From positions 1,050,001 to 1,082,000 of the forward strand of contig OY759724.1 of assembly GCA_963662715.1 (NCBI GenBank): a DNA stretch of 32,000 bases, written 5' to 3'. Shown in pieces: positions 7,561 to 32,000 of the stretch. A model generated the notes under the pieces. That model searched no databases. It was not told the DNA's origin and worked only from the letters and a program-made list of their open reading frames with translations. The stretch comes from Candidatus Omnitrophota bacterium (GTDB lineage Bacteria; Omnitrophota; Gorgyraeia; Zapsychrales; JANLHA01). The position numbers were made by a program, and so were the translations under genes. Within the stretch, counting starts at the first letter, position 1. Each line of letters opens with the position of its first letter.

Positions 7561-7561
7561 T

Positions 7562-10138: not shown

Positions 10139-10630
10139 TTACTTTTTATCTTTCGGCTTTTTTTTCTTCTCTTTTTTTCGTCTGTTCTGAAAGACAATTT
10201 TAATGCCGGGGTACGTCAAATAAAAAATGACAATAACAGGCCAAAGAATAAAAAAAACGAATAACGTGAATAAAATATTCTGTATCGTCGTCTGCGGAAG
10301 CGGCACATAATTCATCAGCCAGAAAGCCAAAGGCTGGATGGAGGGCCCTAAGAGCCAGTGGATGACGACGACGCCCCAGAGGAACAGGATGGAAAACAGC
10401 CAGACGGCCCCTTTTCTCGCCCATTCTCTTTTAAAAAACAATCCCATACTGCACAAAAAAGCAACAGCCATGTATGCCCAGACAACCGAGGTTAAACGGG
10501 AAAAAGCCAGTTTGTCTCCCATATGATAAGACCAATAAGCACCGGGAAGAACGGATACTAAAAGCCACAAAGCGATGACGTTGATGCCGCGGGGATTATT
10601 CTGGGACAAATTTTCGTCTGGCAAGTTCAT
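10139..10630 (-). CDS. Four-TM membrane protein with a poly-lysine C-terminal tail, unknown function
   Basis: 163 aa with four hydrophobic segments and a C-terminus NRRKKEKKKKPKDKK. Lies 36 nt upstream of the receiver gene on the same strand. No clear RBS. Confidence 0.55.
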   Translation of the reverse strand: MNLPDENLSQNNPRGINVIALWLLVSVLPGAYWSYHMGDKLAFSRLTSVVWAYMAVAFLCSMGLFFKREWARKGAVWLFSILFLWGVVVIHWLLGPSIQPLAFWLMNYVPLPQTTIQNILFTLFVFFILWPVIVIFYLTYPGIKIVFQNRRKKEKKKKPKDKK

Positions 10631-10792: not shown

Positions 10793-11569
10793 CTATCTCC
10801 TGGATTGCTTCCACTCTATAAGCAACAATACCAAAGCCAATGTCGCCGGGATAGCCCCGAAAGGAAGTACAATCAAGATAAAAAACTGATGCAACGAAAG
10901 CTTCATAATTAATTCAAGCGATATGCGCCAGTAATAAAAAGTGCCGAATATCATGGCCGGCAGGGAAAAAAAGAGCCAAGGATTTCTTACCAGCCAATGA
11001 AAAGGAACAAGCAGTATAAAAGCATACGTAACATGAGGGATCGCCTCGGTCATAATATATTTATTGGTTTCCCCCGCCTCTTCATAGTAAAAGAGAAGTT
11101 CCGGGTTGAGAATAGACGCAAGATGGATGCCGATAATACACAAAGCGAACAAATAAATATATGCCCTTAAAACAAGACCGAATCCCCTTTTAGATTTCTT
11201 ATAAGAACTCTTAAAATTCAAACTAATATTCGAAGAACCCGGGTCCCCCCCCTCCTGCTCGACACCCTTTGATTTCGCATAGGCTTTTGTCGACAGAGTT
11301 AACGCCTGGGCTTCATCATATTCTTCCTGTCCGGACAAACAGCGTCGATAATATTCCAATAATTCCTCGGGAGGCCTTCTTTTATTCGAGGCTTGTGTGA
11401 TGTTCATCAGATCCTGCAGGCTGGCATGGATCAGAGGATCTTCTTGTGTGGATGTCTCATATTCCGGCGTAACAACAATACTTAATACCCATCCATACAT
11501 ATCTTCCGGCGTAATTTTATTTTCCTGCAAAGCCGTAATTTTATCAAAAATAATCTTTCTGTTAAGCAT
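10793..11569 (-). CDS. Membrane protein (soluble ~130-aa N-domain + ~4 TM), unknown function
   Basis: 258-aa ORF with an AAAGGA RBS. The hydrophobic C-terminal half includes LVLRAYIYLFALCIIGIHL, HVTYAFILLVPF, FFSLPAMIFGTFYYW and LIVLPFGAIPATLALVLLLI. Confidence 0.6.
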   Translation of the reverse strand: MLNRKIIFDKITALQENKITPEDMYGWVLSIVVTPEYETSTQEDPLIHASLQDLMNITQASNKRRPPEELLEYYRRCLSGQEEYDEAQALTLSTKAYAKSKGVEQEGGDPGSSNISLNFKSSYKKSKRGFGLVLRAYIYLFALCIIGIHLASILNPELLFYYEEAGETNKYIMTEAIPHVTYAFILLVPFHWLVRNPWLFFSLPAMIFGTFYYWRISLELIMKLSLHQFFILIVLPFGAIPATLALVLLLIEWKQSRR

Positions 11570-16409: not shown

Positions 16410-18209
16410 ATGAACAAAGTTCATATATTGTCACCTGATATTATCGCAAAAATCGCCGCGGGAGAAGTCGTGGAGCGCCCGGCATCCGTGTTAAAGGAAC
16501 TTATGGAAAACGCGCTTGATGCCGACACGCAATCCATCGACGTGCACCTGAAGCAGGCCGGAAAAATTTATCTTTCGATCAAAGATAGCGGGACCGGCAT
16601 ATCGGAAGAAGATATTGAAAAAATTTTTCAAAGGCATTCTACCAGCAAAATTTCCTCTCCGGAGGATCTCTTCCGGATTCATTCTCTGGGGTTCCGGGGG
16701 GAAGCCCTTTACAGTATCGCGGCCGTATCGGATATCGTGTTAAGAAGCCGTCCGCAAGACCAGGAGGCCGGATGGGAAATTCATTTGCGGGGGGGAGAAA
16801 AGCTTGGCCTGAAACCCGCGGCCATGCCGGTCGGGACAGAGATCGAGGTCCAGGAACTCTTTTTCAATACTCCGGCCCGAAGAAAATTTTTAAAGTCCAA
16901 CACAACGGAATTGAACCAGATCCTTAACATTTTTATCCCTTATACATTACTGTATCCTCATATCCGTTTCGTTCTCACGCACGGGGAGAAACCGCTTCTC
17001 GACCTGGCGCCGGGGAACCAGCTACGGGCACGCATAGCCGAAGCCCTCAACTTAAACGAAGAACACCTCCTGGAACTGAGCCACACCTTCGAACAAGAAG
17101 CCATTACGGTCCGTGCCGTCCTGGGAGATATCAATATCCACCGCTCCCGCAGGGACATGCAGTTTCTCTTTATTAACAACCGTCCCGTGTTCAGCAAGGT
17201 CCTGAGCTTTCATCTGAATCAAGTCTACCGTCTGATCTTGCCTGACGGGTCTTTCCCCTTCTTCGCCCTTTATATCGACATGCCGGCTGAAGACGTCGAT
17301 GTCAATATTCATCCCACCAAACGGGAAGTCAAAATCAGGGATGAACAAAGTCTGGCAACCCTTCTAAGGCATATGTGCGAAAACGCGCTCCTTTCCGGAG
17401 GATCGGCCAAACAGGCTGTTGCCCGGGACGAAGGCCCTTCATCATCACGACCCTCGTTCGTTCAACAGGCCCTGTCGGGGACGGCGCAGCAAGCAGGAGA
17501 GGAAACGAGAATGTCTTTTGTGCAACAGGGGGAGGAAAAGGCCGTAAAACACTTCCGCCTTTCGCCTACGGAACAATATTCTTTCCCGGAGAAAAAGCAT
17601 CCCGGCCTTCAGGGGGAACCCCTTCTTTTTAAAAAACAGGACAATCTGCCGTCCCGACTGGGCCGGGCCCGTTTCGTCGGAACTTTTATCAATAAATTTC
17701 TGTTTTTTGAAGAAGACCGTTCGCTGCTCGTGATAGACCAACATGCCGCTCAGGAACGGATCACGTTTGAACAGCTTGTGCAGCAGATGGAAAAGGGGCA
17801 GATTGAAGTTCAGAATCTTTTAAGCCCGTATCTTCTGGAACTTTCCCCGCAGGACATGCTTTCCTGGGAAGAAGCCCAGCCGGCGCTTGACCAGATAGGC
17901 TTTTCTTCGACGCAATTCGACGAACAGACCGTCGCCATTCATTCCTACCCTGTCCTTATTAAAGATCCGGCCAAAGCCGTCTGTGATCTTCTGGCCGGAG
18001 GGGATTTCGCCCGCTGTGATCATGAAACCATGGCCAGGAGAGCCTGCCGGTCCTCTATTATGGCCGGCGATAAACTCAACCCGGAACAATGTGAATTTTT
18101 ACGCCGGCAGCTGCTCAAATGCCGGGATCCTTTTACTTGCCCTCACGGCCGCCCCACGGTCATGGAACTTAAGGAAGACTTTTTGGATAAACAGTTCTTA
18201 CGCACATAA
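16410..18209 (+). CDS. mutL: DNA mismatch repair protein MutL (endonuclease-type)
   Basis: 599 aa. GHKL ATPase N-terminus (IAAGEVVERPASVLKELMENALDA, DSGTGI). C-terminal endonuclease motifs DQHAAQERITFE and FTCPHGRP. GGAGA RBS 10 nt upstream. Confidence 0.97.
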   Translation: MNKVHILSPDIIAKIAAGEVVERPASVLKELMENALDADTQSIDVHLKQAGKIYLSIKDSGTGISEEDIEKIFQRHSTSKISSPEDLFRIHSLGFRGEALYSIAAVSDIVLRSRPQDQEAGWEIHLRGGEKLGLKPAAMPVGTEIEVQELFFNTPARRKFLKSNTTELNQILNIFIPYTLLYPHIRFVLTHGEKPLLDLAPGNQLRARIAEALNLNEEHLLELSHTFEQEAITVRAVLGDINIHRSRRDMQFLFINNRPVFSKVLSFHLNQVYRLILPDGSFPFFALYIDMPAEDVDVNIHPTKREVKIRDEQSLATLLRHMCENALLSGGSAKQAVARDEGPSSSRPSFVQQALSGTAQQAGEETRMSFVQQGEEKAVKHFRLSPTEQYSFPEKKHPGLQGEPLLFKKQDNLPSRLGRARFVGTFINKFLFFEEDRSLLVIDQHAAQERITFEQLVQQMEKGQIEVQNLLSPYLLELSPQDMLSWEEAQPALDQIGFSSTQFDEQTVAIHSYPVLIKDPAKAVCDLLAGGDFARCDHETMARRACRSSIMAGDKLNPEQCEFLRRQLLKCRDPFTCPHGRPTVMELKEDFLDKQFLRT

Positions 18210-21200
18210 AATACCCGAAAGATGATCGCGGCCCTCTGAATGACCTGTTCCTTGCTGCAGCAGAGCTTAAAAAGGAAAACCGGAAAATAATTTTCCAAAT
18301 GATCTTTTAAAAACTGCTGTCTCTTCCATCCCTGCCAGAATAACCATGTTTCCTGCAGGCTCTTGGCATACCGTCCTTCTCTCCACTGAAAATGCAGCCG
18401 TTCCATCATCCACAGGACCTGACGTCTGCTAAAAAACAGGACCTCTTTAAAAATATTATTTAACGCCAACAATGCAAAAGCCTCGACATCCTTAAAAAAT
18501 TCGTCTTTATCCGCCGGCGGGCTTAAGCCCGTGCTGGCATAATTATGTTTATCATAGACCACCCGTATGACCTCCTGTTGAAATATTCCGGAGAATCTCG
18601 GAGGCGGGATAATGTTCCCAAATTTGGCAAAAAACAACTCCGTTGTTCGCGTCAGCAAAAACCAATTGAGCCCGGAGGATACCGGGATAGCCGGAGGCAC
18701 TTCCTTGGATAGGCCGAAAGGAGCAAAAGGATTCATAAGGACAGGCGAAGACGGCATCAGTGTCGGCATAAGCAGCTCCGGTATCAGGACGTTCACCGGC
18801 GGCAGGATTTCTCTGTTTTTCTTCTGGCTCTTAACCGGCAACGATTCCACGACAATAGCCGCACCGACAGAAGAGGCTTTTTCCGTTCTCCGCGAAACAG
18901 GATAAGAACCTATCGCAAGAGCCGCTCCGGCACGGACTTTCCGGGGATGTTTTGTAACCTGCCGGCCTTCCGGAGACGGGGCGGAAAGAACCACCGTGGA
19001 TCCCTGCGCTCCGTCTGCTTTATCCCGAATGGGATAAGCCCCTATCATGAGGGCGGCACCGGCACGGAATTTCCGGGCCGACTTTATCTCCGGCGTTCCT
19101 TTAGACACCTGATCCAAAGAAATAAGCCGCAATGAACTGGGGCTGGGGTATTCTGAAGAATCCGGCCTGGCATGTTTTATCCGGACAAAAGCCGTATCGA
19201 CAGCCGCCTCCAAATATATGAAAAGGCGGAAAAACTTATTCAATAAATATATAAGATACTGTAACAACTGATGGAAAAACGCCCTGGCCTTTGATAATAA
19301 CAGCGGCAGGTCAATCCATACAACCTGCTCATCTTCCTCTTCATCAACAATATCAGGGAAAACAAGTGAAATTTCTTGATACTTTTTATTCACAGCAACA
19401 ACATTTGTTGTCGCCGGATTGATCTCCATAAAAATTGTGGGCAGGCCATTCTTCCGGGGGTAAAACATCCAGAAAATAATAACCGCTTTATGAAAAATAT
19501 GTCCTTTATGGCAGCAAAACCTGAAAAGGAAGACCGGAAAATAATGTTCCAAATGCTCTTTCAAAAACTGCTGCCTCTCCCACCCCTGCCAAAACAACCA
19601 TGTTTCCTGCAGGCTTTTCACTAGGCGGCTTTCTCTCCACAGGAAAGGAAGGTGTTCTGTAATCCGCCGGACTTGCCGTCCGGCCATAAACATCGCTTCT
19701 TTAAACGACCGCTCAAAACCCCAGCGGGGTTCCGTAAAAAACCGCCTCAGCGCTCCGGATCCTAATGCCCCAAAGGATTCTTCTTCCTTCGTCCATGACC
19801 GCAGGCGGGACAGCCTTTTCCCGTACCGGTCATCCGGCCACGGGTTCATAGTCATACCGGAAGGGAAAAAAATGGCAGGTGTCTTAAAATAAAAACCTCC
19901 CCGAATCCTTGTGTCTTTTTCTTGTCCGGCAGCAGCAGAAAAAGCAGGAAGAACAGCAGACCGGTAACCGGAAGGCCTCTGCTGAAGCTGAAAGGCCAGG
20001 GGCTGCCTGTGGGCCTTTTCCTGAAACGGACGGAGAAACAGAGATTGGGGAAGGACAGAAATTCGCCGGGAATTCTTTTTCAGCGGAGTCAGCGACACAA
20101 AAGAGTTACGGCGTCCTCTGTTGGGAGACCTGGCTTCGGTTTTATGCCGCTGTGATATCCATTCATGTAATAATTTATACATCCGTTCACGAATGACCTG
20201 CTCCCTATTCTTAAGTTGTGTTCCCCAGAAAATCTCCGGCAGCGGATCCGGGACATAGGGATCGCCGAGAATGATAACTTCACCCCAAACCGTTGAGACA
20301 GAAATATCGAACGGACGCTCTTTTATTTCCATATCAAGACCGAATAATAACACCTCAAAAATCTGTTCCGGAATTTCATGATACCATGACCACAAGGAAA
20401 ATTCTCCGGGCCCCAAGCTCCCTGTTGCCGTTTCTTGAATCTTCACAATGGGAAGCCATTCCCCTTTTCCGGCCTCCGGAAAAGTATATAAAGACGGCCC
20501 GCGCTGCATAGGTGACGGAACAGCCGGCGCCTTTATCCTGACAGCCCCTGTAAAAATACGGCCGACCGGCTCAGAGTAAGAAGCAGGCCCGTATCTTACT
20601 AACACATGGTCTAAAAACTTTAATGCCAACAATTCTTCCGGCAGGCTTTCCTCGGGTTTATTGTAAAAACGCTGAACAGGGGGCAGGCATGTCTCTTCAT
20701 AAACAGCAAAGGAAGGAACCTGGTATAACTCATCCGGGAGCTGTTGGGACTTATATGAATAATACAGCCAGTCCCGTGTGCCTAATAAAACCGTATTATC
20801 ATTCAAGGATAGGCGCTCCAGCTGACACGCCTGCAAAACCGATAAAGCGGGTTTATAAACAGGTTTCTGAAACTGAAGGGGTGAAGATATTTTTCCGTGT
20901 GTTTTATTATCTTTAACTGCTTTCAATCGGCCGGGATCCCGGAGCATAAACGGTTCCGGCACCAATGTCAACCTCTTCATTTTCAATAAAATCTCTCTGA
21001 CAATTTCAAAATCGGCTTTATCGTTTGCGTCGATAAACAAAACGTTCCGCCGGCTCCGTTCAGTCTGAATGACAGGCAAGATAACCTGGCCATGTTCCCT
21101 GACCCGTCTATAGAATAATGAGAGACGTGGGTTGTTATATCGTTTGCGCTGAATCCACCGCTGTTTGGCTGTTTGCTTGGCCACGCCTAAATGCACAATC

Positions 21201-27200: not shown

Positions 27201-30200
27201 ATGGCTTTGATCCAGAGGATTTTCTTTTCGGACACTTCCGTAAAAGACAGCCGTCCGAAGTCCCTCAACAAGGATCCCCAAAGAGCCCTGATTTCATTTC
27301 CTTCGGTCAAAACGCCGCTTTCAGGCTCATATTCCTCTGCCAGGGATTTCAAAGCCAAAAGATCTTCTAGACGATCGAACAATTCTTCTATTTTTTCTTC
27401 CCGCGCATCCAGCTCCTTTACGGCTTGTTTAAATAAAGCGGCTTTCTCAATCAGCAGCAAAAAGAAGCGGTCCCGGACACCGGAGACAGAATATTCATTC
27501 TTGGGTTTCCTCTTGAAAGAATTCCTGCGTTTCTCTCGAACCATCCGCAGAACGCTTTTATTTATAACGAATGACGCCGAGATAGTTCCGTCATAATTAT
27601 CCAAATATCCGATTAATCTTTTAGACGTATCATCTTTGTTCACATACGCGTAAACATTGATAACAACTTTTGCCCCCTGTTTAACAAATTCTATGTCCGG
27701 GTGCTGTCCGCTTAAAAGCATGCTGAGGATACGGTCGCCGACAGAAATATTCCGGGCGTAAAAGAAATTCAAAACGCCCCTGTGGATGCGCTGCTGCAGC
27801 GTAAACCGGTGAGGCTCCTGCCTCCCCGGAACTGCGGCAAAATAGTCTCCCTGCATATACCTTAATGCATCCAGTTCGAGCTTTGAACGGATCTTGTATT
27901 TTCCTAGATCAACACCACGGAAATTCCTGACTTCCCCTGTCACGGGATCTTCATAATAATGATTTGTCACGACAAGCCTTCCCTCATGCTGCACACAGCA
28001 TTCCACCATCTTTATTTCGCGGACAGGATCAACAATTATATTGAAAAAGGCCCTCTTCCCGACATGTTCCCCTTTCGCACATACCGTGACAAAAGTCCTT
28101 TCACTGAGATGAGAAATGACAACCCGTCCATTCACGGAAATCCTGTCCTTTGTGGCAACGGCTGTGCGCTCTGTAAACGGATACGGCCGATGATTTAAGA
28201 ATTTCATAATATCCATCTCCCCTACCGAGGAAAGCCCGAAACTCGTGTTGCTATCGGCCAAGAAATAATGCCCTTCGCCCGTTACGGCATCCAGATAATA
28301 CAGCGCTTCGACCTTATAGTTCCCGCCGGCATCTTTTACCGAAATCTCTATCATCTCTCCCTGACTTACCGTATCGACAAGCTCAAACCGGACTGTCTGA
28401 TATCCGGCATTCCTGTCCTCCTGGCAGATATGAATATACCGCCGGTAGGCCGGCACCCACAGCCCTCCTTTATAAATTTTGTATCTCTCCTCAACCGGCC
28501 CTTCGTTTCTGATCCTGTAGGCGTAATAATGATAAAAATTACTAAAACTAAAACTGTTTAATTCTGCCAGAAGTCTGTCCGCGGGATACGGGGATATGAC
28601 ACCCGCTTGGGGAGCTGCGCTGTTTTTCATAAAACCAACTTCATGCCGCAGCCATTGACGGTAAATTTCCGGACTTTCTTCTTTTAACCGGTTTAAAAAG
28701 AGTTGGCTTTCAGTCGAAAGCAGGGCGCGGTACAGGAACCTCCGGCTCGTTGGGACCTTCCCGTTGCGTTTTAAGACACGGGCATATGAGACTAAACGCA
28801 CAGGTTCTTCCGACGATAAGACCTTTCTCAAAAGGGACGCTTCACAGGACGTTTCGCCCTTGTTCAAAGTCACAAAAACCGGCTCCACTTCGCTGACGCC
28901 CTGTTCAGCCATTTCCGCAAGAACGTCGTTCTTCAAGGCATCATCCGCAATGTCTTGGCCTTCGTTCTGGCTTTTCAAAGCCAATTTGTTTAACCTGTCG
29001 TTCTGTTTCTGACTGAGTGTTAACCTTTGCCATTGCCCGTCCTCCATTTTAAAAATCAACGAACTGTCCGCTGCGGGCTGGCTCACATCGTTTGTAACCG
29101 GAGAGCTCATCTTCTTTCCTGATATCCCGCTTTGACAGACCGGCCTGTCCTTGAGCTCTAGTCGTGATTTGCTGATATGCCGAGATATTTCCCCGATGGC
29201 TTGCGGGTATTGGTTCTCCCGGTCTTCCCGTCCGGCTTTCTTAAGGTAGGATTCAGCCATGTTTAAAGCCAAAGTGCTTTTGGAGCTGTGGCTGTAACAA
29301 TTAGCCAATTCAATCAGCAGTCCGAGACGAACTTTCTGGTCTTCACATAATTCCAAAGCCTTTTCATAACAGACAATCATTAAGGGCAGACCGGCAGCCT
29401 GTCTGTAAAATTCTCCCAGCAATTTATACAGATCTACGGCTGCTGCATGTCCGATATCCAAAGCCTGCCCGACCATGCTTAAAGCGTCTCCCTCAACGGC
29501 GGCAGAGTCTTTCCCTTGCCGCAGTAATTGATAATAAGCAAAAGCGCCCATAGCGCATAAATCCGCAATTTGGGCAGGATGCTTAGCGTCCGTCTTCTTA
29601 ATAGCTTCTTTTAACAGGCCGAGCCCGGTAGACCAGTTTTTTACCGCAAATTTTTCTTTGGCCAGTTCAACAAAAGCTTCACTTGAACTGTTGATTAAAT
29701 CCAGTTTTTTCTGCATGGACGGCAAACTTTCCGTGAGTCCTAGCGCTGCAAAGATTTCAATATATAAATGGTAAATTTCTGCGGTATATATCTTCCACTC
29801 AACCCAGGGAGCGATAAGGTCGGCCGCATTAAAAAGGGCGTCCACCGCATGAGGCCGCTGCCTTGATTTCATAAGCATTTCATAGCGTGCCATCAGAATA
29901 CGGGTATGGACGGTGCTCATCTCAAACAGGATATATCTAAAATGATCCTGAGCCCAGGCAACATCATCGGTGTGCATACGATCCTGAATCTGAGCAATAA
30001 ACTGTAAGGATTTTTCAAGATAGGCCTCGATTAAGAAATCCTCCTTATCGGCATCGCTCCTGTGCCGGGAGAGATGGAGCTGTTCCCGGGCCAGCATTTC
30101 ATAAATCTTAGCCGCACTTAAAAGCACGTCCATTCTCTGCGGATAAAGCGCCACAGCCCGGTCAATATATATCTGACTCCGGGTCCACAATTTCTCCCGT

Positions 30201-31990
30201 GTATCAGGATCAGTTTCCTGACCTGCCAGGTTTGAGTATAAAAGGGCCAAAGCGCAATGCGCGAGCCCCAGGAGAGGATCTTTATCAACCGCGCGAAGTA
30301 AATAAGATTCTCTTTGTTTCACGCTGTCGCAACTGGCAGCCCTGTTGAAGTCAAGAAGCGCCGGGAAAGATACTCCGGCCCATCGGGACCAGGGAAGGCG
30401 TTCCAACTGTTCGGAAGACATAAAGATAATCTTTTGGCTCCGCTGATCCTCACCGATAACGGCAATCATAAGACTGTCATAGGATTTCTTAAAGTCACGG
30501 TTCATAAGATCGAGGGTCAAAATACGATCTTCGTCCAGCCCGACAATAACGATAACATGCCATGTTTCATGATATCTATGCTCCATCGCGTTCACCGGCA
30601 CAACCCTGGCTTCAAATCCGCTTTCCCGGGCTATTTCGTGATAAATAACAGAAAAGACCAGACAGTTGGCCATATTTAGTTTCATAAAGACTTCGATATC
30701 TCCCTTGGCATTTCTGGTCGAAGGAACCGGGAAAACATTAAACTGCAAAATGTCAAACCAGAATCGGGCGATATCATTGAGGAACAAGGTTGCTTTTTCA
30801 TCGTCCTCCATTTCTTGGACACGGGTTCTGATTCTTCGGGAAATATCATTTAAAGTTAAATTTTTAAACTGCCCGGAAAGAATCTCAGGGGAGTCCGAAG
30901 ACATGAGTTCAGGAATAACGGCCCGGATATTGTCCGGCACAACGTCGGCAAATGTCCGGTAACGAAGAAGCCATAACGGCAGACGCTGATGAACGGCCTC
31001 AAGCAATTCTGTCCTGTGATATTCGTCCAGCACCGGAGAAGATCCAGGAATAAAACCAGCCGCTGCCACCGGTGCTGCCATAAGGATGCTTTTTTCAATT
31101 TCCACGGCGGCAATTTTATCCGTCAGAACGTTAAAGGCATTCAAAGGAACAACACTTTCGTTCCTGGTGGATAACCGCACATCTTTCAGTTGTTTGTGCC
31201 AGAATCCCCCGGAGTTGGCCGTCATGTTGCTTATAATGCACGTTCTGCAATCAGCGTCGGCCAGCATCCGGACAAACGTTCTCAGCAGATTTGTCCCGTA
31301 ACGGGAACCCCGCCCGTGTGCATCCCGGGCGATAACAATGTAAAATAACTTGCCCTGCTTATCGCCTGTGTGGACATAATAGGTCAGCTGCCCGACAACT
31401 TTCCCGCCCCGGGCCATGATAAGGATATCCTGCACAAAGTCATCAGCCAAAAGCCCGATACCATAATCCAGCGGCGGCTCAACATCTCCTTCGTGCAATC
31501 GGTATTCTCTGGGGAAGGAACTTTTGCCGTTATTTCCTAATGCTTGATATAGAGATAAAACATGGATATCGTCATCTCTTCTTGTTGATAAAATAAACTT
31601 CCCGTATAATCTGGCGGCGTCACTTAAAAGCCTGATGTTCGCAAATTCGGAAAACCGGTATTCCTCATCCAGCGACAATACCTTGCTGATGAATTGAGAA
31701 TCACTAAAACAGCTATTTCTGTCGACCTGAACGACGGCATCGAATGCCCGCCCTTTCACCCCTGTCCCTTCCTCTGAAGCAAGAATTCGCATTAATACCT
31801 CACCGACACCCTGACCGAATGAAGAGGCCGTCTGAGCCAAGGATTCCAGTGTCTGAAGCTTTTCAGAAAAATATAATTCTTCCCACCTCGTTTTGATCTG
31901 ATAGACAATCGGCTCCTCCTTCCCCTTCGCAGCGTCTTTTGTCACCGGGGAAGAATGATATTCTGCTGACATTCCAGCCATTGAGGACAT
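18143..31990 (-). CDS. Giant multi-domain protein (>=4,615 aa), unknown function; concatenated enzyme-like modules; 5' end possibly beyond the window
   Basis: A single frame is open for 13,848 nt, from ATG at 31990-31988 to TGA at 18145-18143. There is no in-frame stop between the ATG and the window edge. Domain-like motifs are listed as the sub-features below. Confidence 0.9.
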   Translation of the reverse strand: MSSMAGMSAEYHSSPVTKDAAKGKEEPIVYQIKTRWEELYFSEKLQTLESLAQTASSFGQGVGEVLMRILASEEGTGVKGRAFDAVVQVDRNSCFSDSQFISKVLSLDEEYRFSEFANIRLLSDAARLYGKFILSTRRDDDIHVLSLYQALGNNGKSSFPREYRLHEGDVEPPLDYGIGLLADDFVQDILIMARGGKVVGQLTYYVHTGDKQGKLFYIVIARDAHGRGSRYGTNLLRTFVRMLADADCRTCIISNMTANSGGFWHKQLKDVRLSTRNESVVPLNAFNVLTDKIAAVEIEKSILMAAPVAAAGFIPGSSPVLDEYHRTELLEAVHQRLPLWLLRYRTFADVVPDNIRAVIPELMSSDSPEILSGQFKNLTLNDISRRIRTRVQEMEDDEKATLFLNDIARFWFDILQFNVFPVPSTRNAKGDIEVFMKLNMANCLVFSVIYHEIARESGFEARVVPVNAMEHRYHETWHVIVIVGLDEDRILTLDLMNRDFKKSYDSLMIAVIGEDQRSQKIIFMSSEQLERLPWSRWAGVSFPALLDFNRAASCDSVKQRESYLLRAVDKDPLLGLAHCALALLYSNLAGQETDPDTREKLWTRSQIYIDRAVALYPQRMDVLLSAAKIYEMLAREQLHLSRHRSDADKEDFLIEAYLEKSLQFIAQIQDRMHTDDVAWAQDHFRYILFEMSTVHTRILMARYEMLMKSRQRPHAVDALFNAADLIAPWVEWKIYTAEIYHLYIEIFAALGLTESLPSMQKKLDLINSSSEAFVELAKEKFAVKNWSTGLGLLKEAIKKTDAKHPAQIADLCAMGAFAYYQLLRQGKDSAAVEGDALSMVGQALDIGHAAAVDLYKLLGEFYRQAAGLPLMIVCYEKALELCEDQKVRLGLLIELANCYSHSSKSTLALNMAESYLKKAGREDRENQYPQAIGEISRHISKSRLELKDRPVCQSGISGKKMSSPVTNDVSQPAADSSLIFKMEDGQWQRLTLSQKQNDRLNKLALKSQNEGQDIADDALKNDVLAEMAEQGVSEVEPVFVTLNKGETSCEASLLRKVLSSEEPVRLVSYARVLKRNGKVPTSRRFLYRALLSTESQLFLNRLKEESPEIYRQWLRHEVGFMKNSAAPQAGVISPYPADRLLAELNSFSFSNFYHYYAYRIRNEGPVEERYKIYKGGLWVPAYRRYIHICQEDRNAGYQTVRFELVDTVSQGEMIEISVKDAGGNYKVEALYYLDAVTGEGHYFLADSNTSFGLSSVGEMDIMKFLNHRPYPFTERTAVATKDRISVNGRVVISHLSERTFVTVCAKGEHVGKRAFFNIIVDPVREIKMVECCVQHEGRLVVTNHYYEDPVTGEVRNFRGVDLGKYKIRSKLELDALRYMQGDYFAAVPGRQEPHRFTLQQRIHRGVLNFFYARNISVGDRILSMLLSGQHPDIEFVKQGAKVVINVYAYVNKDDTSKRLIGYLDNYDGTISASFVINKSVLRMVREKRRNSFKRKPKNEYSVSGVRDRFFLLLIEKAALFKQAVKELDAREEKIEELFDRLEDLLALKSLAEEYEPESGVLTEGNEIRALWGSLLRDFGRLSFTEVSEKKILWIKAMKELTAKGYIFVPDDQGGWLSRLQGFPSKFMRQTLVAACRDLGIHVAKKGKIRNAGMKQADLYQHYLDILRTYLQKKLLYMRMIRHWQGDRSRLREHFGEDFLARTIPTYYLTGYLKSFGHHSETSLEDAGSDCSSSSMMMRYLFLERRQLERLAGDNPMARKYLSGQARERIEKLVVNIQKDSRLAEAYRSMIHDMETGNTELVDLRLTGQVRKIQKIMARHLPSFISLSGYCVFINATLAQALNMLGHHIPRIYCIETLKPYARYYAGKHFFIMLEDEQDARKDVFLDFRLEQFEEEMEGVDELLSLSVETPSSSPLIKKTAIEKDPGLMGDRQHIKMPKAAEKTQGIVNIVIVNKEYREATFGFPDVADEEKATRLIFIDVPALLSKIAGLFHQLLQYLIYLINKALSFFLYFEAAVHTAAVQIRQAGCKQSRDSGSSLRLISLEVVDQNRRNTMQTRTTPVGATVAMTSSPLINKHDPVWAEYIREQEESKLISSSPVGATVATASSPIINEHDPVWAEYIREQEESKLISSSPVGATVATASSPIINEKDDVWAEYLDKLPERRLPAPPVKVLLPDLFMPKAAPSSPILINPVMPFGLSKEGSPFIPAPASWPGTPYQAQASITVLREISGQQGKGQDKRKHRSTDNVLSENMILYQRFIRGFKEAMIKAVDSNHNFTRTGLSPPGYKTAQESMNGYSYGERAAIYAFMPAREARAVSVQGNVSSPMRVLVRAIAGAVWGGVVRVAEVIRGEKDRMFTVTHPDTQENTVLTATVCRGDVLKVLGNWFYTADRDVLLQDQFSWEPVIRRYHGFRKKAVLFYIGEPARPKAVLWAFRTRELGQDGFHIDTLEVDPRYRGQGLGPLLLKAFVERYGPRFHLEIMAVFITGTQAGYDNYIRLIRNLGFDPTGTFNIYARNAGRRTNTPKTVQRKQEAEDGADYQETVAVSDNFVRSESFSRLPPLFRKWLWLPTLVGVEEAVHLITAYGFKRGLSEIKRQARGVFSGKVSISQASPSRQAFSMVSGVAVSLAVGSFSLILSFFSGHAALSGFLVITGLLTISRSAADILFILFRPDHELRRSFDSLYKVMSFRTIRPWKTCKTSHEREQLRRKLQTHPLDSRFWQFLNRFIFLFMLPAAAILFLVCPDAHVPFGLARPDDFTGFGIRIMSGIFTGVLSGLGILWINRWADWNRSITSSEPTTHGPYKWVRHPEYALQLVLFTSVLAFIPSPLTLLFIVMFILQNILRIRLEEYSLWLKYGEAYLSYMRQVPAFIPFIKPAWIVFKDATMSWISSPGKSPQHAPRIRPAVLPGRAVKGVRGKSAAGTPVPGTEPLLLNLEDFEVAMEGAYRAALKMVQHIYQQKVSLIILSGSSASMTFAFIHVAWENTYGDAPMPGTLWLSPETNNILYKNLIKTFDLHPENITARQRKRVLKSVSQHVHANKKLLIDMILTDIQQQTGLERIQAQDVFSALKAMPVLFMDDVAFSGMKYLSLQRVFSALGIHAMDFAFLVSGDLFRTHLDNQVAVAAIDEQLATAVLFIANMLSNYRDLDEPHEVVEKARFFNPMIERIAGKTSVPEDLRLDSDIIQDRGRRAESSPIQNVDEEAQPRKLLIDGTAGQSWPDILKDDLETFRMKINRITPAEAACGGRAPLPVDMEDFQFLGFLTRAQITILYEHRKTHERYVAKYIDADHLVPNIIGERLFRLMGIPTTEAHLVSRAFSQIILMPFIDLPTLTWEEVTEGLTPGMLRILQGVEFVDRVIDNWDRTPDHIFKGEGANPFIFFDMGGAFMGEERSELIGPYRNKIFSPKWRNGYYQLLNAQPQDMVWMARRFVLVKSSQLKAIVDYAVDAVQGNAYNKGHLVQELLKAQKDARRLIAANGHLPFSVSSPVARPDASVVVLMGLPCSGKTTVGQKMADHFGLPFLSFGERIRLEVQKRQADSGMRKRAKISDAVIYSDLLAEWLKEHDVSRGLVLDTSPKTAESYQLFKNVLQEQKLRVALIVHLGVAKQTAKQRWIQRKRYNNPRLSLFYRRVREHGQVILPVIQTERSRRNVLFIDANDKADFEIVREILLKMKRLTLVPEPFMLRDPGRLKAVKDNKTHGKISSPLQFQKPVYKPALSVLQACQLERLSLNDNTVLLGTRDWLYYSYKSQQLPDELYQVPSFAVYEETCLPPVQRFYNKPEESLPEELLALKFLDHVLVRYGPASYSEPVGRIFTGAVRIKAPAVPSPMQRGPSLYTFPEAGKGEWLPIVKIQETATGSLGPGEFSLWSWYHEIPEQIFEVLLFGLDMEIKERPFDISVSTVWGEVIILGDPYVPDPLPEIFWGTQLKNREQVIRERMYKLLHEWISQRHKTEARSPNRGRRNSFVSLTPLKKNSRRISVLPQSLFLRPFQEKAHRQPLAFQLQQRPSGYRSAVLPAFSAAAGQEKDTRIRGGFYFKTPAIFFPSGMTMNPWPDDRYGKRLSRLRSWTKEEESFGALGSGALRRFFTEPRWGFERSFKEAMFMAGRQVRRITEHLPFLWRESRLVKSLQETWLFWQGWERQQFLKEHLEHYFPVFLFRFCCHKGHIFHKAVIIFWMFYPRKNGLPTIFMEINPATTNVVAVNKKYQEISLVFPDIVDEEEDEQVVWIDLPLLLSKARAFFHQLLQYLIYLLNKFFRLFIYLEAAVDTAFVRIKHARPDSSEYPSPSSLRLISLDQVSKGTPEIKSARKFRAGAALMIGAYPIRDKADGAQGSTVVLSAPSPEGRQVTKHPRKVRAGAALAIGSYPVSRRTEKASSVGAAIVVESLPVKSQKKNREILPPVNVLIPELLMPTLMPSSPVLMNPFAPFGLSKEVPPAIPVSSGLNWFLLTRTTELFFAKFGNIIPPPRFSGIFQQEVIRVVYDKHNYASTGLSPPADKDEFFKDVEAFALLALNNIFKEVLFFSRRQVLWMMERLHFQWREGRYAKSLQETWLFWQGWKRQQFLKDHLENYFPVFLFKLCCSKEQVIQRAAIIFRVFYVRKNCLSKKSSLSSMTVGRP
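18187..18452 (-). repeat. Dispersed intragenic module B, copy 2 (C-terminal end of the giant ORF)
   Basis: FKEVLFFSRRQVLWMMERLHFQWREGRYAKSLQETWLFWQGWKRQQFLKDHLENYFPVFLFKLCCSKEQVIQRAAIIFRVFYVRKNCL. About 85% nucleotide identity to copy 1 over the central ~90 nt, judged by eye. Confidence 0.8.
18496..19429 (-). repeat. Dispersed intragenic module A, copy 2
   Basis: VNKKYQEISLVFPDIVDEEE..IDLPLLLSKARAFFHQLLQYLIYLLNK..YLEAAVDTA..SSLRLISLD, then the tandem repeats, then IPELLMPTLMPSSPVLMNPFAPFGLSKE, then KHNYASTGLSPP. Collinear with copy 1, which lies about 6.7 kb away. Confidence 0.8.
18815..19078 (-). repeat. Degenerate in-frame 132-bp (44-aa) two-copy tandem repeat inside the giant ORF
   Basis: ARKFRAGAALMIGAYPI... 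and PRKVRAGAALAIGSYPV... The ggataag anchors at 19032 and 18900 are exactly 132 nt apart. Confidence 0.55.
19440..19705 (-). repeat. Dispersed intragenic module B, copy 1 (Trp/Cys-rich WLFWQGW module)
   Basis: FKEAMFMAGRQVRRITEHLPFLWRESRLVKSLQETWLFWQGWERQQFLKEHLEHYFPVFLFRFCCHKGHIFHKAVIIFWMFYPRKNGL. Confidence 0.8.
20990..21515 (-). other. Giant ORF domain: adenylate-kinase-like P-loop NMP kinase
   Basis: VVVLMGLPCSGKTTVGQKMADHFGLPFLSFGERIR (P-loop at 21471-21497) and GLVLDTSPKTAESYQLF. These parallel the AK motifs GxPGxGKgT / hlStGdllR / GfilDGfPRt. Confidence 0.6.
21560..22255 (-). other. Giant ORF domain: atypical kinase-like fold (PI3/4-kinase- or HipA-like)
   Basis: ERYVAKYID (Lys), IIGERLF (Glu), catalytic-loop-like VIDNWDRTPDHIF, and DFG-like FIFFDMGGAF (21834-21931). 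Confidence 0.45.
22640..23215 (-). other. Giant ORF domain: phosphoribosyltransferase (type I PRTase)-like
   Basis: VSLIILSGSSASMTF plus a PRPP-loop-like VLFMDDVAFSGMKYL: four hydrophobic residues, two acidic residues, then a small-residue loop. Motif-level call only. Confidence 0.35.
23350..24150 (-). other. Giant ORF domain: multi-pass membrane ICMT/PEMT-like methyltransferase
   Basis: About 5-6 hydrophobic helices (VSGVAVSLAVGSFSLILSFF, LSGFLVITGLLTI, FIFLFMLPAAAILFLV, IMSGIFTGVLSGLGILWI, LQLVLFTSVLAFIPSPLTLLFIVMFIL). The family signature is HGPYKWVRHPEYALQL...RIRLEEYSLWLKYGEAYLSYMRQVPAFIPF. Confidence 0.65.
24440..24925 (-). other. Giant ORF domain: GNAT acetyltransferase 2
   Basis: FHIDTLEVDPRYRGQGLGPLLLKAFVERYG (textbook GNAT motif A) followed by YIRLIRNLGFDPTG (motif B-like). 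Confidence 0.7.
25126..26185 (-). repeat. Dispersed intragenic module A, copy 1 (FHQLLQYLIYL module)
   Basis: VNKEYREATFGFPDVADEE..IDVPALLSKIAGLFHQLLQYLIYLINK..YFEAAVHTA..SSLRLISLE, then the tandem repeats, then LPDLFMPKAAPSSPILINPVMPFGLSKE, then NHNFTRTGLSPP. Confidence 0.8.
25518..25816 (-). repeat. In-frame 111-bp (37-aa) tandem repeat, ~2.7 copies, inside the giant ORF
   Basis: Units 25551-25661 and 25662-25772 differ at only about 5 of 111 nt. The encoded unit is PVGATVATASSPIINEHDPVWAEYIREQEESKLISSS. The flanking copies are more diverged. Confidence 0.9.
26320..26520 (-). other. Giant ORF domain: transglutaminase/papain-like Cys-His-Asp core 2
   Basis: LSGYC(1830)VFINATLAQALNMLGHHIPRIYCIE...GKHFFIMLEDEQDARKDVFLDF. 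Cys codon at 26501-26503, His at 26387-26389, Asp at 26333-26335. Same spacing logic as core 1. Confidence 0.45.
27565..28420 (-). other. Giant ORF region: three related beta-rich modules
   Basis: Each module ends in a similar hairpin: KVEALYYLDAVTGEGHYF / LVVTNHYYEDPVTGEVRNF / RLIGYLDNYDGTISASF. The similarity was seen by eye only. Confidence 0.35.
29200..30310 (-). other. Giant ORF region: TPR-like / all-helical repeats (~370 aa)
   Basis: Repeated A/L/Y-rich helix pairs, for example LLRAVDKDPLLGLAHCALALLYSNL, YIDRAVALYPQRMDVLLSAAKIYEML, YEKALELCEDQKVRLGLLIELANCY. Confidence 0.5.
30500..30700 (-). other. Giant ORF domain: transglutaminase/papain-like Cys-His-Asp core 1
   Basis: NMANC(443)LVFSVIYHEIARESGFEARVVPV...HETWHVIVIVGLDEDRILTLDL. 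Cys codon at 30662-30664, His at 30556-30558, Asp at 30509-30511. TPR-like repeats follow it, a SirB1/YchA-like arrangement. Confidence 0.5.
31170..31560 (-). other. Giant ORF domain: GNAT-like acetyltransferase 1
   Basis: VVGQLTYYVHTGDKQGKLFYIVIARDAHGRGSRYGTNLLRTFVRMLAD is a beta-strand followed by an R/Q-x-x-G-x-G/A-like acetyl-CoA loop. Motif-level call only. Confidence 0.45.
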
Positions 31991-32000
31991 ATCCTGGTCG

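Follow-up and report, generated by a model that had tools for sequence, protein, structure and literature searches.

The window, the whole 32,000-nucleotide stretch of Candidatus Omnitrophota DNA that was analysed, carries on its minus strand a giant open reading frame that we read, with a probability of about 0.7, as encoding a membrane-tethered string of modifying enzymes belonging to the giant multi-enzyme or 'Archaeovorin-type' class of Omnitrophota proteins. What is new is that a conserved Ser-Ser-Pro-Val/Ile motif (SSP-[V/I/L/M]) punctuates the domains of the protein. The gene and its neighbours are placed as follows.

18143..31990, minus strand, giant ORF (ORF listing, translation, codon usage)
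16410..18209, plus strand, mutL, in convergent orientation to the giant ORF with 67 nt of 3'-end overlap
13741-16302, mutS, a syntenic anchor together with mutL and a 529-aa TPR gene

The giant ORF starts with an ATG at 31990 and comprises 4,615 codons plus a stop with zero internal stops, and over the same stretch the other five frames contain 159-251 stops each. The three codons upstream of the ATG are also free of stops (D-Q-D-M...) and the frame runs on to 31999 at the window edge; since it is unclosed there, the gene may extend further and its true start may be upstream of the window. The visible ORF is probably the 3' part of a giant gene of at least 4,615 codons, possibly the whole of it. 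An earlier note on this DNA had described a continuous ORF of at least 4,615 aa, and the lower bound is apt since the 5' end is open; its remark that an N-terminal signal peptide is absent is moot, as the N-terminus probably lies beyond the window, and no secretion signal or signal peptide was seen in the visible 4.6-kaa part. Codon usage resembles that of the neighbouring mutS and mutL (overall r=0.88 against neighbouring housekeeping genes), with r of 0.67-0.87 in nine of ten 500-codon segments and 0.50 in the last short one of ~115 codons, and the other two frames of the same strand reach at most 0.33. The giant ORF is a genuine native coding frame. That the locus is mis-assembled or decaying, with genes fused in silico or by pseudogenisation, is extremely improbable: the relatives' MAG scaffolds do break or hold N-gaps exactly in the giant gene and one carries a frameshift, but 4,618 stop-free codons have a chance of ~e^-248 (computed from base composition), in-frame codon usage is uniform over the whole length, no sign of a chimeric join was seen within the window, and long near-identical repeats capable of mis-joining are absent, the only long DNA-level repeats being modules B1/B2 (73% over 257 nt) and a 111-bp tandem. 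The order of conserved islands described below is also repeated in an independent assembly.

Profile searches of the translated frame, together with hydropathy and structure comparisons, covered the following enzyme and repeat regions, confirmed or only claimed earlier, from N- to C-terminus.

31235..31423, minus strand, GNAT-like domain 1 (residues 190-252; weak, NCBIfam rimI 2e-5, second stretch of Pfam Acetyltransf_1)
30530..30739, minus strand, transglutaminase/NAT-like Cys-His-Asp core (residues 418-487; weak, Pfam Transglut_core E=0.012)
29141..30373, minus strand, TPR-like helical repeat array (about residues 540-950; weak, Pfam TPR_17/TPR_12 E 0.14-0.29)
26291..26548, minus strand, second Cys-His-Asp core by motif resemblance (candidates C1830, H1868, D1886)
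24452..24748, minus strand, GNAT acetyltransferase domain 2 (residues 2415-2513; Pfam Acetyltransf_1 4e-9 at 2441-2505)
23363..24130, minus strand, membrane block of 5-6 hydrophobic segments by hydropathy (residues 2621-2845), including an ICMT/PEMT-type methyltransferase
21551..23308, minus strand, regions claimed earlier as PRTase-like and kinase-like (residues 2895-3480)
20999..21508, minus strand, adenylate-kinase / NMP-kinase-like domain (residues 3495-3664; Pfam ADK 7e-12, AAA_17 8e-13)

At least three unrelated small-molecule-transfer domains can be confidently recognised on one chain, namely a GNAT, an ICMT/PEMT membrane methyltransferase and an NMP kinase. The GNAT domain 2 has motif A as RGQGLG at 2457-2462, a phrog_1249 match at 2e-7 and weak GNAT matches in the PDB. 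The methyltransferase (residues 2710-2876) matches Pfam PEMT at 4e-6 and ICMT at 1e-5, and in the PDB 8xku_G at 4e-8 and the ICMT entries 5v7p/4a2n at ~1e-3, and its motifs are intact (RHPEY at 2807-2811 and EE..L..YGE.Y at 2848-2860). PDB adenylate kinases match the ADK-like domain at 1e-9 and its P-loop reads GLPCSGKTT (3499-3507). All three domains had been named in the earlier note, and the profile matches bear out both these calls and the chaining of unrelated enzyme domains in one continuous frame. Weaker signals point to another GNAT, to a transglutaminase/NAT-like core of Cys-His-Asp type and to a TPR-like array. The N-terminal GNAT, also proposed before, has a motif-A-like AHGRGSRYG at residues 224-232; the first Cys-His-Asp core matches the PDB arylamine N-acyltransferase 8k51 over residues 432-496 (E=0.05), with C443, H478 and D494 as the candidate triad by motif position; and the TPR-like array matches alpha-SNAP/Sec17 (E=0.028) and gave an all-helical model of low confidence (pLDDT 47) in which every Foldseek match is a TPR protein. 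The core and the array thus both find some support, but not their pairing as a SirB1/YchA-like unit, as none of the 17 Pfam families that reach E<=1 on the giant ORF is SirB1-specific.

Other calls found no support with the methods used: residues 2895-3480 gave zero Pfam matches, zero PDB sequence matches at E<=10 and an AF2 single-sequence model with pLDDT of 34, which leaves the PRTase-like and kinase-like folds unsupported, and the second Cys-His-Asp core and the beta-rich modules matched nothing in Pfam or the PDB. The absence of RTX, NRPS/PKS, Ig/cadherin and Rhs models stands, as none of them scores on the giant ORF even at E<=1 (Pfam). About 60% of the protein is without a recognisable fold, and the 'enzyme string' covers the annotatable minority. 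Like the stand-alone adenylate kinase, GNAT and ICMT/PEMT families, the three domains pass Pfam gathering scores with key motifs intact, but unlike them they sit within a multi-kaa chain. The ADK-like domain lies far below every NCBIfam equivalog cut-off (the top model gives it 51 bits where 187 are required), its P-loop departs from GxPGxGKGT, and substrate specificity is not transferable.

Self-comparison and alignment with orthologs revealed a second layer of organisation made of internally duplicated modules and conserved islands.

31634-31978, minus strand, N-terminal module (residues 5-119; self-comparison)
28775..29131, minus strand, internal copy of the N-terminal module (residues 954-1072; 24% identity, E 2e-5)
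27854..28570, minus strand, two tandem module copies (residues 1141-1265 and 1253-1379; self-comparison)
25124..26170, minus strand, module A1 (residues 1941-2289; self-comparison, island conserved in ortholog)
25493-25801, minus strand, three 37-aa VGATVATASSPI tandem repeats within A1 (residues 2064-2166)
20129..21547, minus strand, conserved island of ADK and ~290 aa downstream (residues 3482-3954; ortholog alignment)
19448..19705, minus strand, module B1, WLFWQGWERQQFLKEHLEHYFPVFLFRFCC (residues 4096-4181; self-comparison, ortholog alignment)
18506..19426, minus strand, module A2, paralogous to A1, its SSP repeats degenerate (residues 4189-4495)
18146..18451, minus strand, module B2, the C-terminal signature, ...VFYVRKNCLSKKSSLSSMTVGRP (residues 4514-4615; ortholog C-termini)

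The A and B modules of the earlier note are real duplications, with 38% identity between A1 and A2 and 64% between B1 (4096-4181) and B2 (4514-4599). A1 contains an FPDV-acidic stretch, a hydrophobic helical segment, SLRLISL, the three repeats and a PPVKVLLPDLFMPKAAPSSPILINPVMPFGLSKE tail, and neither Pfam nor the PDB matched the tandem module at 1141-1265/1253-1379.

Among 1.84 billion representatives the only non-trivial relatives were Omnitrophota proteins (P0002/P0151 and P0005), whose genes, all of them partial, sit in Candidatus Omnitrophota MAGs at the locus that the giant gene occupies in the window. The order of giant gene, convergent mutL, mutS and 529-aa TPR gene is common to all relatives (loci L002-L006), and in two other species of Omnitrophota this locus, tail-to-tail with mutL-mutS, carries orthologs of the giant gene, as synteny and alignment show. 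Pilin-like genes are found at 9-12 kb from the giant ORF. The neighbouring genes share 62-78% identity with their counterparts (MutS 76-77%, MutL 70-72%), whereas the giant gene can be aligned only in four islands at 26-50% identity: module A, ADK with its tail, and module B twice. The ADK-plus-tail island has 30% identity over 489 aa to HPN55283.1 (P0002), and B2 residues 4524-4615 are 49-50% identical to the ortholog C-termini. One ortholog measures 11.6 kaa or more and is called as genes of 7,995 aa and 3,611 aa with the frameshift that joins them inside a GH63 motif, and its apparent stops are N-gaps. On conservation of domain order, a question raised in the earlier note, the answer is divided: the island order A ... 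ADK ... B is identical in the independent assembly, but the enzyme domains between the islands differ, the ortholog's own being HD, LOG/SLOG, GH63-like, GT4/GT1, Pkinase and ADK. The gene would evolve with its scaffold modules fixed and the enzyme cassettes between them exchanged.

Further proteins of several kaa in which an ADK is embedded together with GNAT, methyltransferase or HATPase domains likewise come from Omnitrophota MAGs. The class is already published, so that the earlier remark that no described family with this domain order was known has to be withdrawn. It was described as 'Archaeovorin-type' by West-Roberts et al. 2023 (bioRxiv 10.1101/2023.11.21.568195), is also treated by Seymour et al. 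2023 (PMC10066038) and corresponds to the 'class 1 multi-enzyme', Pfam module 1, of Nielsen & Lui 2026 (bioRxiv 10.64898/2026.06.07.730766); the type example is the 39,678-aa protein of Velamenicoccus archaeovorus LiM, and the class includes a TM-only, cytoplasmic-facing fraction with methyltransferase, GNAT and HATPase content. That the window ORF is a new member is probable. It shares with the class the Omnitrophota genome with pilin/T2SS-like genes nearby, the tiling of unrelated Pfam enzyme domains (GNAT, methyltransferase, kinases, TPR) over a length that mostly cannot be annotated, transmembrane helices with no visible signal peptide, very fast divergence, most members being singletons, and a gene that is truncated in short-read MAGs. 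It differs in having 4.6 kaa visible (at least 11.6 kaa in the ortholog) against at least 30 kaa in the West-Roberts set, the papers' thresholds of 10 kaa and 30 kaa not being demonstrable for this gene because the window ends, and also in having no SecA_DEAD, C39, HEAT, NUDIX or GT domain in the visible part, a convergent mutL rather than PilZ downstream, and the lineage-specific modules A and B with the SSP-[VILM] motif.

By hydropathy the chain has a single internal block, of 5-6 membrane helices, and the ICMT-like bundle would anchor the giant protein in the cell's own inner membrane. Both large flanks would face the cytoplasm, since the K/R-rich loop 2669-2726 fits the positive-inside rule and GNAT, ICMT, ADK and kinase chemistry requires acetyl-CoA, SAM and ATP, although the topology is taken from hydropathy alone and one flank would lie outside if the helix count were odd. 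With its enzymes anchored and facing the cytoplasm, the protein would work as a membrane-tethered string of modifying enzymes and not as an adhesin. Against this reading, Nielsen & Lui (bioRxiv 10.64898/2026.06.07.730766) concluded from DeepTMHMM-predicted topology that in a 147-kaa example similar 'metabolic' domains lie in the periplasm or outside the cell. The prevailing literature proposal for Archaeovorins, an extracellular adhesion or cell-wall-degrading coat protein, is favoured by the GH63-like and GT4/GT1 domains of the ortholog and the TPR-like array of the window protein; we regard it as very unlikely here, as Pfam gave no CAZyme, lectin, dockerin, Ig or beta-helix signal in the 4.6-kaa part, the recognisable chemistry depends on intracellular cofactors and the window shows no sign of a secretion signal.

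MARTX toxins of Vibrio and relatives carry strain-variable, unrelated 'effector' enzyme domains on one giant polypeptide, with short inter-domain linkers as processing sites and a cysteine peptidase domain in cis. The window protein resembles them in its array of unrelated enzymes, short linkers and candidate Cys-His-Asp core in cis, and its acetyl-CoA-, SAM- and ATP-dependent enzymes would function in a foreign cytoplasm after translocation into prey or host, there to act on proteins, lipids and nucleotides. Omnitrophota are ultra-small and inferred to be epibiotic predators or parasites, peptides mapped to the V. archaeovorus giant ORF rise 3-fold in cells attached to larger cells, and the pilin-like genes at 9-12 kb also favour such delivery. 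We nevertheless judge it quite unlikely: no RTX nonapeptides, CPD (C80), T1SS, T3SS or T6SS marker or translocation domain were detected in the window, linker processing is putative, a signal peptide is not visible (though the N-terminus is probably missing), and the integral membrane methyltransferase mid-chain, a bundle of 5-6 helices, points to stable residence in the membrane.

The tripeptide SSP occurs 16 times in the giant ORF against 1.16 expected, with a shuffle maximum of 6.

Giant ORF, minus strand, SSP at residues 13, 317, 962, 1912, 2069, 2095, 2106, 2132, 2143, 2186, 2325, 2890, 3193, 3484, 3702 and 4414
21530..21541, minus strand, SSPV at residues 3484-3487, upstream of the ADK P-loop

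In the window protein and two further sequences together, V/I/L/M directly follows in 33/35 sites and Pfam-supported domains contain none of the 35 (P=0.003), and the SSP codons vary between sites. No linker or motif of this kind, nor cleavage at one, is mentioned in West-Roberts 2023 or Nielsen & Lui 2026. It has the look of a motif for linking, processing or docking. Processing would make the protein a bacterial polyprotein, cut at or near SSP-[V/I/L/M] into a dozen or more separate enzymes by its own Cys-His-Asp peptidase-like domain(s) or by a post-proline protease. Viral replicase polyproteins (e.g. nidovirus pp1ab) similarly chain methyltransferase, kinase/NTPase-like, papain-like protease and membrane-spanning modules with a short conserved site motif between them, but the window protein is encoded on a cellular chromosome beside mutL and mutS, is without polymerase or helicase, and its cleavage is putative. 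The enrichment of SSP, its apparent selection at the protein level and confinement to inter-domain positions, its conservation in orthologs and paralogs with diverged flanks, and the presence in cis of one weakly supported papain/transglutaminase-superfamily core and one motif-resemblance core all agree with cutting, and self-cleavage of giant proteins by C39/S8 domains has been raised as possible (West-Roberts et al., bioRxiv 10.1101/2023.11.21.568195). We still consider a polyprotein unlikely, because transferases outnumber peptidases among transglutaminase/NAT-like cores, several sites fall within the module A tandem repeats rather than between enzymes, and spans of ~950 aa (962-1912) and ~700 aa (3702-4414) have no site. 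In the membrane-tethered string the SSP-hydrophobic segments would be inter-domain joints, which could be flexible linkers and at the same time recognition sites for a partner, for example a protease, a prolyl isomerase, a kinase or a TPR module. The motif keeps its place in both kinds of relative: the SSP before the ADK P-loop is at the same position in the window protein and the ortholog, and the N-terminal module and its 24%-identical internal copy each start with an aligned SSPVT.

ORF calling and translation of the minus strand gave a giant ORF of 4,615 amino acids (window 18143..31990) that covers 43% of the window, contains no internal stop and ends with ...SMTVGRP*. From the ATG at 31990 the frame stays open through three further codons (D-Q-D-M) up to the window edge, so the 5' end of the ORF is not set by the window; the 13.8 kb stated in the earlier note therefore stands as a lower bound. 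Over the same 13.9 kb, the remaining five frames contain 159-251 stops each, and the chance of 4,618 stop-free codons, estimated from base composition, is ~e^-248. The GC content by codon position (0.54/0.39/0.51) is like that of mutS, mutL and the adjacent histidine kinase gene, and codon usage correlates with that of these three genes with an overall r of 0.88; the in-frame values are 0.67-0.87 in nine out of ten segments of 500 codons, the exception being the short final one at 0.50, whereas r is at most 0.33 in the other two frames of the same strand. The ORF is thus native and continuously coding, as had been claimed, and an assembly or pseudogene artefact is hardly credible. The giant ORF is convergent with mutL, sharing 67 nt at the 3' ends (window 18143-18209); an overlap of equal length is present in the related contig L004 (229-295), which shows that the tail-to-tail layout is conserved.

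Searches with Pfam, NCBIfam and PDB sequences yielded three secure and three weak domain assignments along the giant ORF, with ~60% of the chain lacking an assignable fold.

Features of the giant ORF (minus strand, window 18143..31990; residues counted from the ATG at 31990)
5-119 and 954-1072: N-terminal module and its repeat, 24% identity
190-252: rimI-type GNAT (GNAT-1), NCBIfam E=2e-5
317: SSP site, between GNAT-1 and the Cys-His-Asp core
418-487: Transglut_core, Pfam E=0.012, below gathering score
432-496: arylamine N-acyltransferase (a Cys-His-Asp enzyme), E=0.05, weak, with plausible C443/H478/D494
962: SSP site, past the TPR-like array
1141-1265 and 1253-1379: segments that align with each other
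1912: SSP site, ahead of module A1
1941-2289: module A1, 38% identity to A2
2064-2166: three 37-aa tandem repeats
2325: SSP site, ahead of GNAT-2
2441-2505: GNAT (GNAT-2), Pfam E=4e-9, above gathering score
2621-2845: 5-6 hydrophobic segments (hydropathy only)
2669-2726: K/R-rich loop, 14 of 58 residues K/R
2792-2857: PEMT/ICMT, Pfam E=4e-6 and 1e-5, above gathering score
2890: SSP site, 14 residues past the ICMT domain
3193: SSP site
3484: SSP site, 11 residues ahead of ADK beta-1/P-loop
3495-3640: ADK/AAA_17, Pfam E=7e-12 and 8e-13, above gathering score
3702: SSP site, 38 residues past ADK
4096-4181: module B1, 64% identity to B2
4189-4495: module A2
4514-4599: module B2

The secure assignments are those that the earlier note had read as a clear GNAT, an ICMT/PEMT-like methyltransferase and an adenylate-kinase-like P-loop, and all three are borne out by profile matches and by intact catalytic motifs: RGQGLG (GNAT motif A), RHPEY and EE..L..YGE.Y (ICMT) and GLPCSGKTT (P-loop). 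The Pfam scores were 27.8 against a cut-off of 25 for PEMT, 26.2 against 24 for ICMT and 46.2 bits against 26.8 for ADK (PF00406). The PDB sequence search returned dozens of adenylate kinases at ~1e-9, and also the ICMT structures 5v7p and 4a2n and the ICMT-like chain 8xku_G. The NCBIfam adenylate and UMP-CMP kinase models scored far below their equivalog cut-offs (adk ~50 bits against 168-262), so the ADK domain is not an equivalog.

Further towards the N-terminus, the proposed GNAT, first Cys-His-Asp core and TPR-like repeats each found weak matches, the last through TPR_17/TPR_12 (E 0.14-0.29, below gathering score) and alpha-SNAP (0.028), but none of them is secure. An AF2 single-sequence model of residues 280-950 (pLDDT 47) is all-helical past ~residue 540, and Foldseek matched it to TPR proteins only, generically and with TM-scores of 0.1-0.4. 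The SirB1/YchA pairing suggested for this region did not hold, since the 17 Pfam families at E<=1 include only the generic Transglut_core and TPR_17/TPR_12; the likeness is at fold-class level only. Residues 2895-3480, taken by eye for PRTase-like and kinase-like folds, matched nothing in Pfam, NCBIfam or the PDB sequences at thresholds as loose as E<=10; an AF2 single-sequence model of residues 2895-3485 reached a pLDDT of 34, and both AF2 models are too poor to assign a fold. Neither profiles nor the PDB supported the second Cys-His-Asp core and the beta modules, and these, like the PRTase-like and kinase-like calls, remain by-eye motif resemblances. PADLOC and PHROGs gave generic kinase and acetyltransferase matches only in the window, with no defence-system or phage signal, and Rfam and tRNA scans of the window returned nothing.

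The internal modules described from the sequence were reproduced by tile-against-tile BLAST, which recovered the A1/A2 and B1/B2 pairs as well as the repeated N-terminal module and the alignment of residues 1141-1265 with 1253-1379. The DNA encoding the three 37-aa repeats is a 111-bp tandem with 91-98% identity; the duplication lies at window 25520-25741 (TRF array 25545-25813), encodes the VGATVATASSPIINEHDPVWAEYIREQEESKLISSS repeats of module A1 and suggests that an SSP-bearing unit expanded recently and in frame. Three analogous 30-aa repeats are present in the ortholog (upstream ORF of its contig L003, residues ~1061-1150).

The hydrophobic segments make up a 5-6-helix ICMT-type membrane block, with TM topology as given by hydropathy only. 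Our preferred reading, to which we assign a probability of about 0.7 together with the class membership discussed below, is that the giant protein is a membrane-tethered string of modifying enzymes, anchored in the inner membrane and with both flanks cytoplasmic. The ICMT bundle would anchor the protein in the inner membrane of its producer, both flanks would face the cytoplasm given the positive-inside loop and the need for acetyl-CoA, SAM and ATP, and the joints of the string would be SSP-hydrophobic segments. Published options for the function of giants are adhesion or cell-wall attack, secreted CAZymes and membrane-anchored cytoplasmic enzymes. The coat proposed for the class, with an extracellular role in adhesion or cell-wall degradation, is very improbable for this protein: the acetyl-CoA/SAM/ATP chemistry and the integral ICMT bundle favour a membrane-anchored, cytoplasm-facing enzyme string over an adhesin, a pointer that the published surveys do not contain. 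The absence of RTX, NRPS/PKS, cadherin/Ig and Rhs motifs noted by eye was confirmed with Pfam across the giant ORF. We regard a delivered effector array as decidedly unlikely; unlike MARTX toxins, the giant ORF and its neighbours gave no HemolysinCabind, Peptidase_C80 or T1SS matches.

The giant ORF also carries a short motif that is not reported in the earlier note. SSP is its most enriched tripeptide, with 16 occurrences against 1.16 expected (13.8-fold; maximum of 6 in 2,000 shuffles), and 15 of the 16 sites are followed by V, I, L or M, SSPV and SSPI being enriched 89-fold and 59-fold, respectively. The serines are encoded by TCT, TCC, TCA, TCG, AGC and AGT and the prolines by CCG, CCT and CCC; selection therefore acts on the peptide and not on a DNA element, and a recombination site or cassette boundary at the DNA level was discarded on account of the many different codons. 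The other 14 proteins of the window contain a single SSP in 5,274 aa. Enrichment is also found in the ortholog, both in P0151 (3,611 aa; 9 SSP, 15.5-fold) and in the 3,359 aa upstream of it on L003 (10 SSP, 19.7-fold), where nearly all sites are SSPV or SSPI. Over these two sequences and the giant ORF, 33 of 35 sites are followed by V/I/L/M with no flank consensus, and the flanks are mildly enriched in disorder-promoting residues (p 0.01-0.08 per protein).

The SSP sites bracket recognisable domains. None of the 35 falls inside a Pfam-supported domain envelope, against 5.4 expected from envelopes that make up 15.4% of residues (P=0.003). The motif stands at the same position ahead of the ADK P-loop in both lineages (SSPVARPDASVVVLMGLPCSGK vs SSPVTGDQRPVVVFVGLPCSGK), is aligned in the internal paralogs of 24% identity (HSSPVTKDA vs MSSPVTNDV) and is found again in the module-A repeats of the two lineages (VGATVATASSPI vs VGALTVMSSSPV). 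Nine other long ADK-bearing proteins, several of them confirmed Omnitrophota MAG proteins with GNAT, methyltransferase or HATPase domains as well, show no SSP enrichment, so the motif is specific to the ortholog group of the giant ORF; we accordingly rejected it as a general trait of Omnitrophota giants or, with one SSP in 5,274 aa, of the organism's own proteome. A VRK motif in P0018, a partial Omnitrophota MAG protein, was considered as a similar candidate and set aside as it is not linker-like. A literature search for the SSPV motif gave nothing relevant, and linker motifs, cleavage sites, MutS and adenylate kinase all go unmentioned in West-Roberts 2023 and Nielsen & Lui 2026. The published surveys lack a short SSP-hydrophobic motif under strong selection that marks inter-domain positions. 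Processing, isomerisation, phosphorylation or docking could be tested at this defined site, which might be recognised by a protease, a parvulin-type isomerase, a proline-directed kinase or a TPR module.

That the giant protein is a true polyprotein, with cuts at the SSP joints, is an unlikely alternative to which the placement of the motif is relevant. Equally tentative is the wider view in which SSP-[V/I/L/M] is a dedicated processing or docking signal and the giant gene a cellular 'polyprotein operon'. Its single product would be cut into at least a dozen enzymes, or folded as such through partner binding; the cutter might be its own Cys-His-Asp modules or a post-proline protease, the binding partner the TPR array or a parvulin-type prolyl isomerase, and new enzyme cassettes would be plugged in between the fixed scaffold modules A and B. 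If true, ultra-small bacteria would have a means of expressing and exchanging sets of enzymes that has not been recognised before. The membrane-tethered string of modifying enzymes, with the SSP segments as joints, remains the reading that we prefer.

We also searched for relatives of the giant gene. The full-length protein had no match in a word-indexed search of 5.8 billion protein clusters, a module-B profile found only P0005 and a module-A profile nothing in the same database, and exact-sequence look-ups of the giant protein and MutL returned no record. A peptide-pattern scan of GTDB genomes gave L001 as its sole match, which was dismissed as a spurious adenylate kinase from a Sphingomonadaceae MAG; a first peptide-pattern scan of JGI metagenomes gave nothing, and the yield of a second JGI scan, run with the module-B profile, was limited to two further contig ends, which belong to the two related species already represented. 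When the C-terminal 1,200 aa were searched exhaustively with HMMER against 1.84 billion representatives, 746 matches reached E<=0.001, and among the best 150 of these all but two align to the ADK-like domain only. Of these two true relatives, P0002 (3,108 aa, partial) scored 151 bits over the ADK domain, an alignment that BLASTP extends to residues 3482-3954 at 30% identity, and P0005 (97 aa, partial) is 50% identical to the last 92 residues of the giant ORF; NCBI names both as Candidatus Omnitrophota MAG proteins, and P0151 is a 90%-cluster mate of P0002.

The gene order running from the 3' end of the giant gene through convergent mutL, mutS, a ~530-aa TPR gene and a ~258-aa gene is found on the contigs of all relatives, and the window gene order occurs on contigs of three NCBI MAG assemblies with proteins that NCBI names Candidatus Omnitrophota. 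Identity to the window is 76-77% for MutS, 70-72% for MutL and 62-78% for most others, the 111-aa ORF being at 37.5%. Judged by the shared gene order and these identities, the source of the window is an Omnitrophota bacterium and the locus an orthologous one. On contigs L004 and L006 the order continues with a ~160-aa protein, a response regulator and a DUF4900 protein. The ortholog group so far comprises three species-level lineages, all partial save for the 4.6 kaa of the window and one 11.6-kaa scaffold.

Between the window protein and the ortholog, tblastn aligned only islands: module A (26% identity), ADK (42%) with its downstream tail and module B (44-50%). Outside these islands the two are unalignable and differ in Pfam content. 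The ortholog runs HD, module A, LOG/SLOG, GH63/MGH1-like hydrolase, GT4/GT1, TPR, Hanks-type Pkinase, ADK and module B, whereas the window has module A, GNAT, ICMT, unassigned regions and ADK; the distance from A to ADK is ~1,530 aa in the window and ~5,400 aa in the ortholog. Between the two, the domain order is kept only as the islands A, ADK and B, with different enzymes in between. The comparison indicates that the giant gene changes much more rapidly than the genes around it, through the exchange of cassettes between scaffold modules that are conserved. A syntenically fixed orthologous giant-gene locus, tail-to-tail with mutL, is not in the published surveys; it permits like-for-like comparison across species and shows turnover of enzyme cassettes between the scaffold islands.

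In the ortholog assembly (GCA_035389205.1) the gene is called as a 7,995-aa ORF overlapping a 3,611-aa ORF, with a frameshift at the junction in the GH63 motif (GWDNSP / RWD; L003 near 10000-10082); with the frameshift bridged, the protein has at least 7,995 + 3,611 aa (at least 11.6 kaa), and the window ORF therefore likely runs on upstream too. In every related short-read MAG the giant gene runs off the contig or is broken by an N-run in the duplicated B1/B2 region.

Breaks of the giant gene in relatives
L002 ~9325-9423
L003 ~20835-20934
L004, L005 and L006, contig starts

Apparent in-frame stops ahead of module B in the orthologs were considered as recoding and are in fact scaffold N-gaps. 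Given the contig ends, N-runs and frameshift, public annotations systematically split or shorten the giant gene, and short-read MAGs systematically truncate it. Several partial Omnitrophota MAG proteins of 1.5-4 kaa (P0007, P0008, P0018, P0019/P0152 and P0061) have an embedded adenylate-kinase-like domain with GNAT, SAM-methyltransferase, HATPase or HPr companions, none being SSP-enriched; it appears that long Omnitrophota proteins repeatedly include an NMP kinase of this embedded kind.

Few predicted proteins in biology are as large as the Omnitrophota giants. ORFs of more than 20 kb occur in most Omnitrophota classes and are described as showing little conservation and having few annotations (Seymour et al. 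2023, PMC10066038). Archaeovorin-type proteins combine GT, methyltransferase, GH, peptidase, NUDIX, GNAT, TPR and HEAT domains with many TM helices, a SecA_DEAD domain and an N-terminal C39/S8 peptidase, and have T2SS/T4P genes upstream, PilZ downstream and a parvulin-type prolyl isomerase conserved beside the giant genes (West-Roberts et al. 2023, bioRxiv 10.1101/2023.11.21.568195). A catalogue of 916 proteins of at least 10 kaa has a multi-enzyme class 1, a Pfam co-occurrence module of methyltransferase/HATPase/GNAT/HAD, 80% of clusters as singletons at 30% identity and 46% of entries TM-only, read as inner-membrane-anchored with cytoplasmic domains (Nielsen & Lui 2026, bioRxiv 10.64898/2026.06.07.730766). 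The giant ORF resembles Omnitrophota giants in taxon, mosaic enzyme content and rapid divergence, in a TM block without a visible signal peptide and in being tiled by distinct Pfam enzyme domains, none dominant. Pilin-like genes in its vicinity may be a further likeness, the window ending before the region upstream of the giant gene. It differs in having convergent mutL where the Archaeovorin type has PilZ directly downstream, and Pfam returned no SecA_DEAD, C39/S8 or HEAT match at E<=1 across the available 4,615 aa; such domains could still be encoded in an N-terminal part beyond the window. Its 4,615 aa within the window compare with published limits of at least 10 kaa (Nielsen & Lui) and at least 30 kaa (West-Roberts), with the frame open at the edge. 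We therefore file the giant ORF in the known Omnitrophota giant multi-enzyme class, with lineage-specific scaffold modules and an SSP punctuation motif.

Among the neighbouring genes, a pilin-like cluster at window 6319-9594 (+) comprises 150-aa and 262-aa prepilin N-methylation proteins, a 566-aa DUF4900 protein (N_methyl and DUF4900 matches at 6319-9262) and the 111-aa ORF, and is consistent with the T2SS/T4P-like genes described in the vicinity of giant genes of this phylum. The YeeE/YedE-type sulphur-transport family is represented by two adjacent ORFs at 4600-5130 and 5134-5550 (-), one matching the N-terminal and the other the C-terminal half of the Pfam model; the family may truly take the form of two genes here, or the gene may be disrupted. 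The 529-aa protein at 11772-13361 (-) has a hydrophobic N-terminus and a TPR-like and coiled-coil-like match, is kept in all relatives at ~62% identity, and its gene has an unusually strong bias in strand composition (AT skew -0.34, GC skew -0.26 over 12001-13000). The minus-strand ORFs at 10793-11569 (258 aa) and 10139-10630 (163 aa), which have no Pfam match, are 66-72% identical to counterparts at the same positions in relatives, between the response regulator and the TPR gene.
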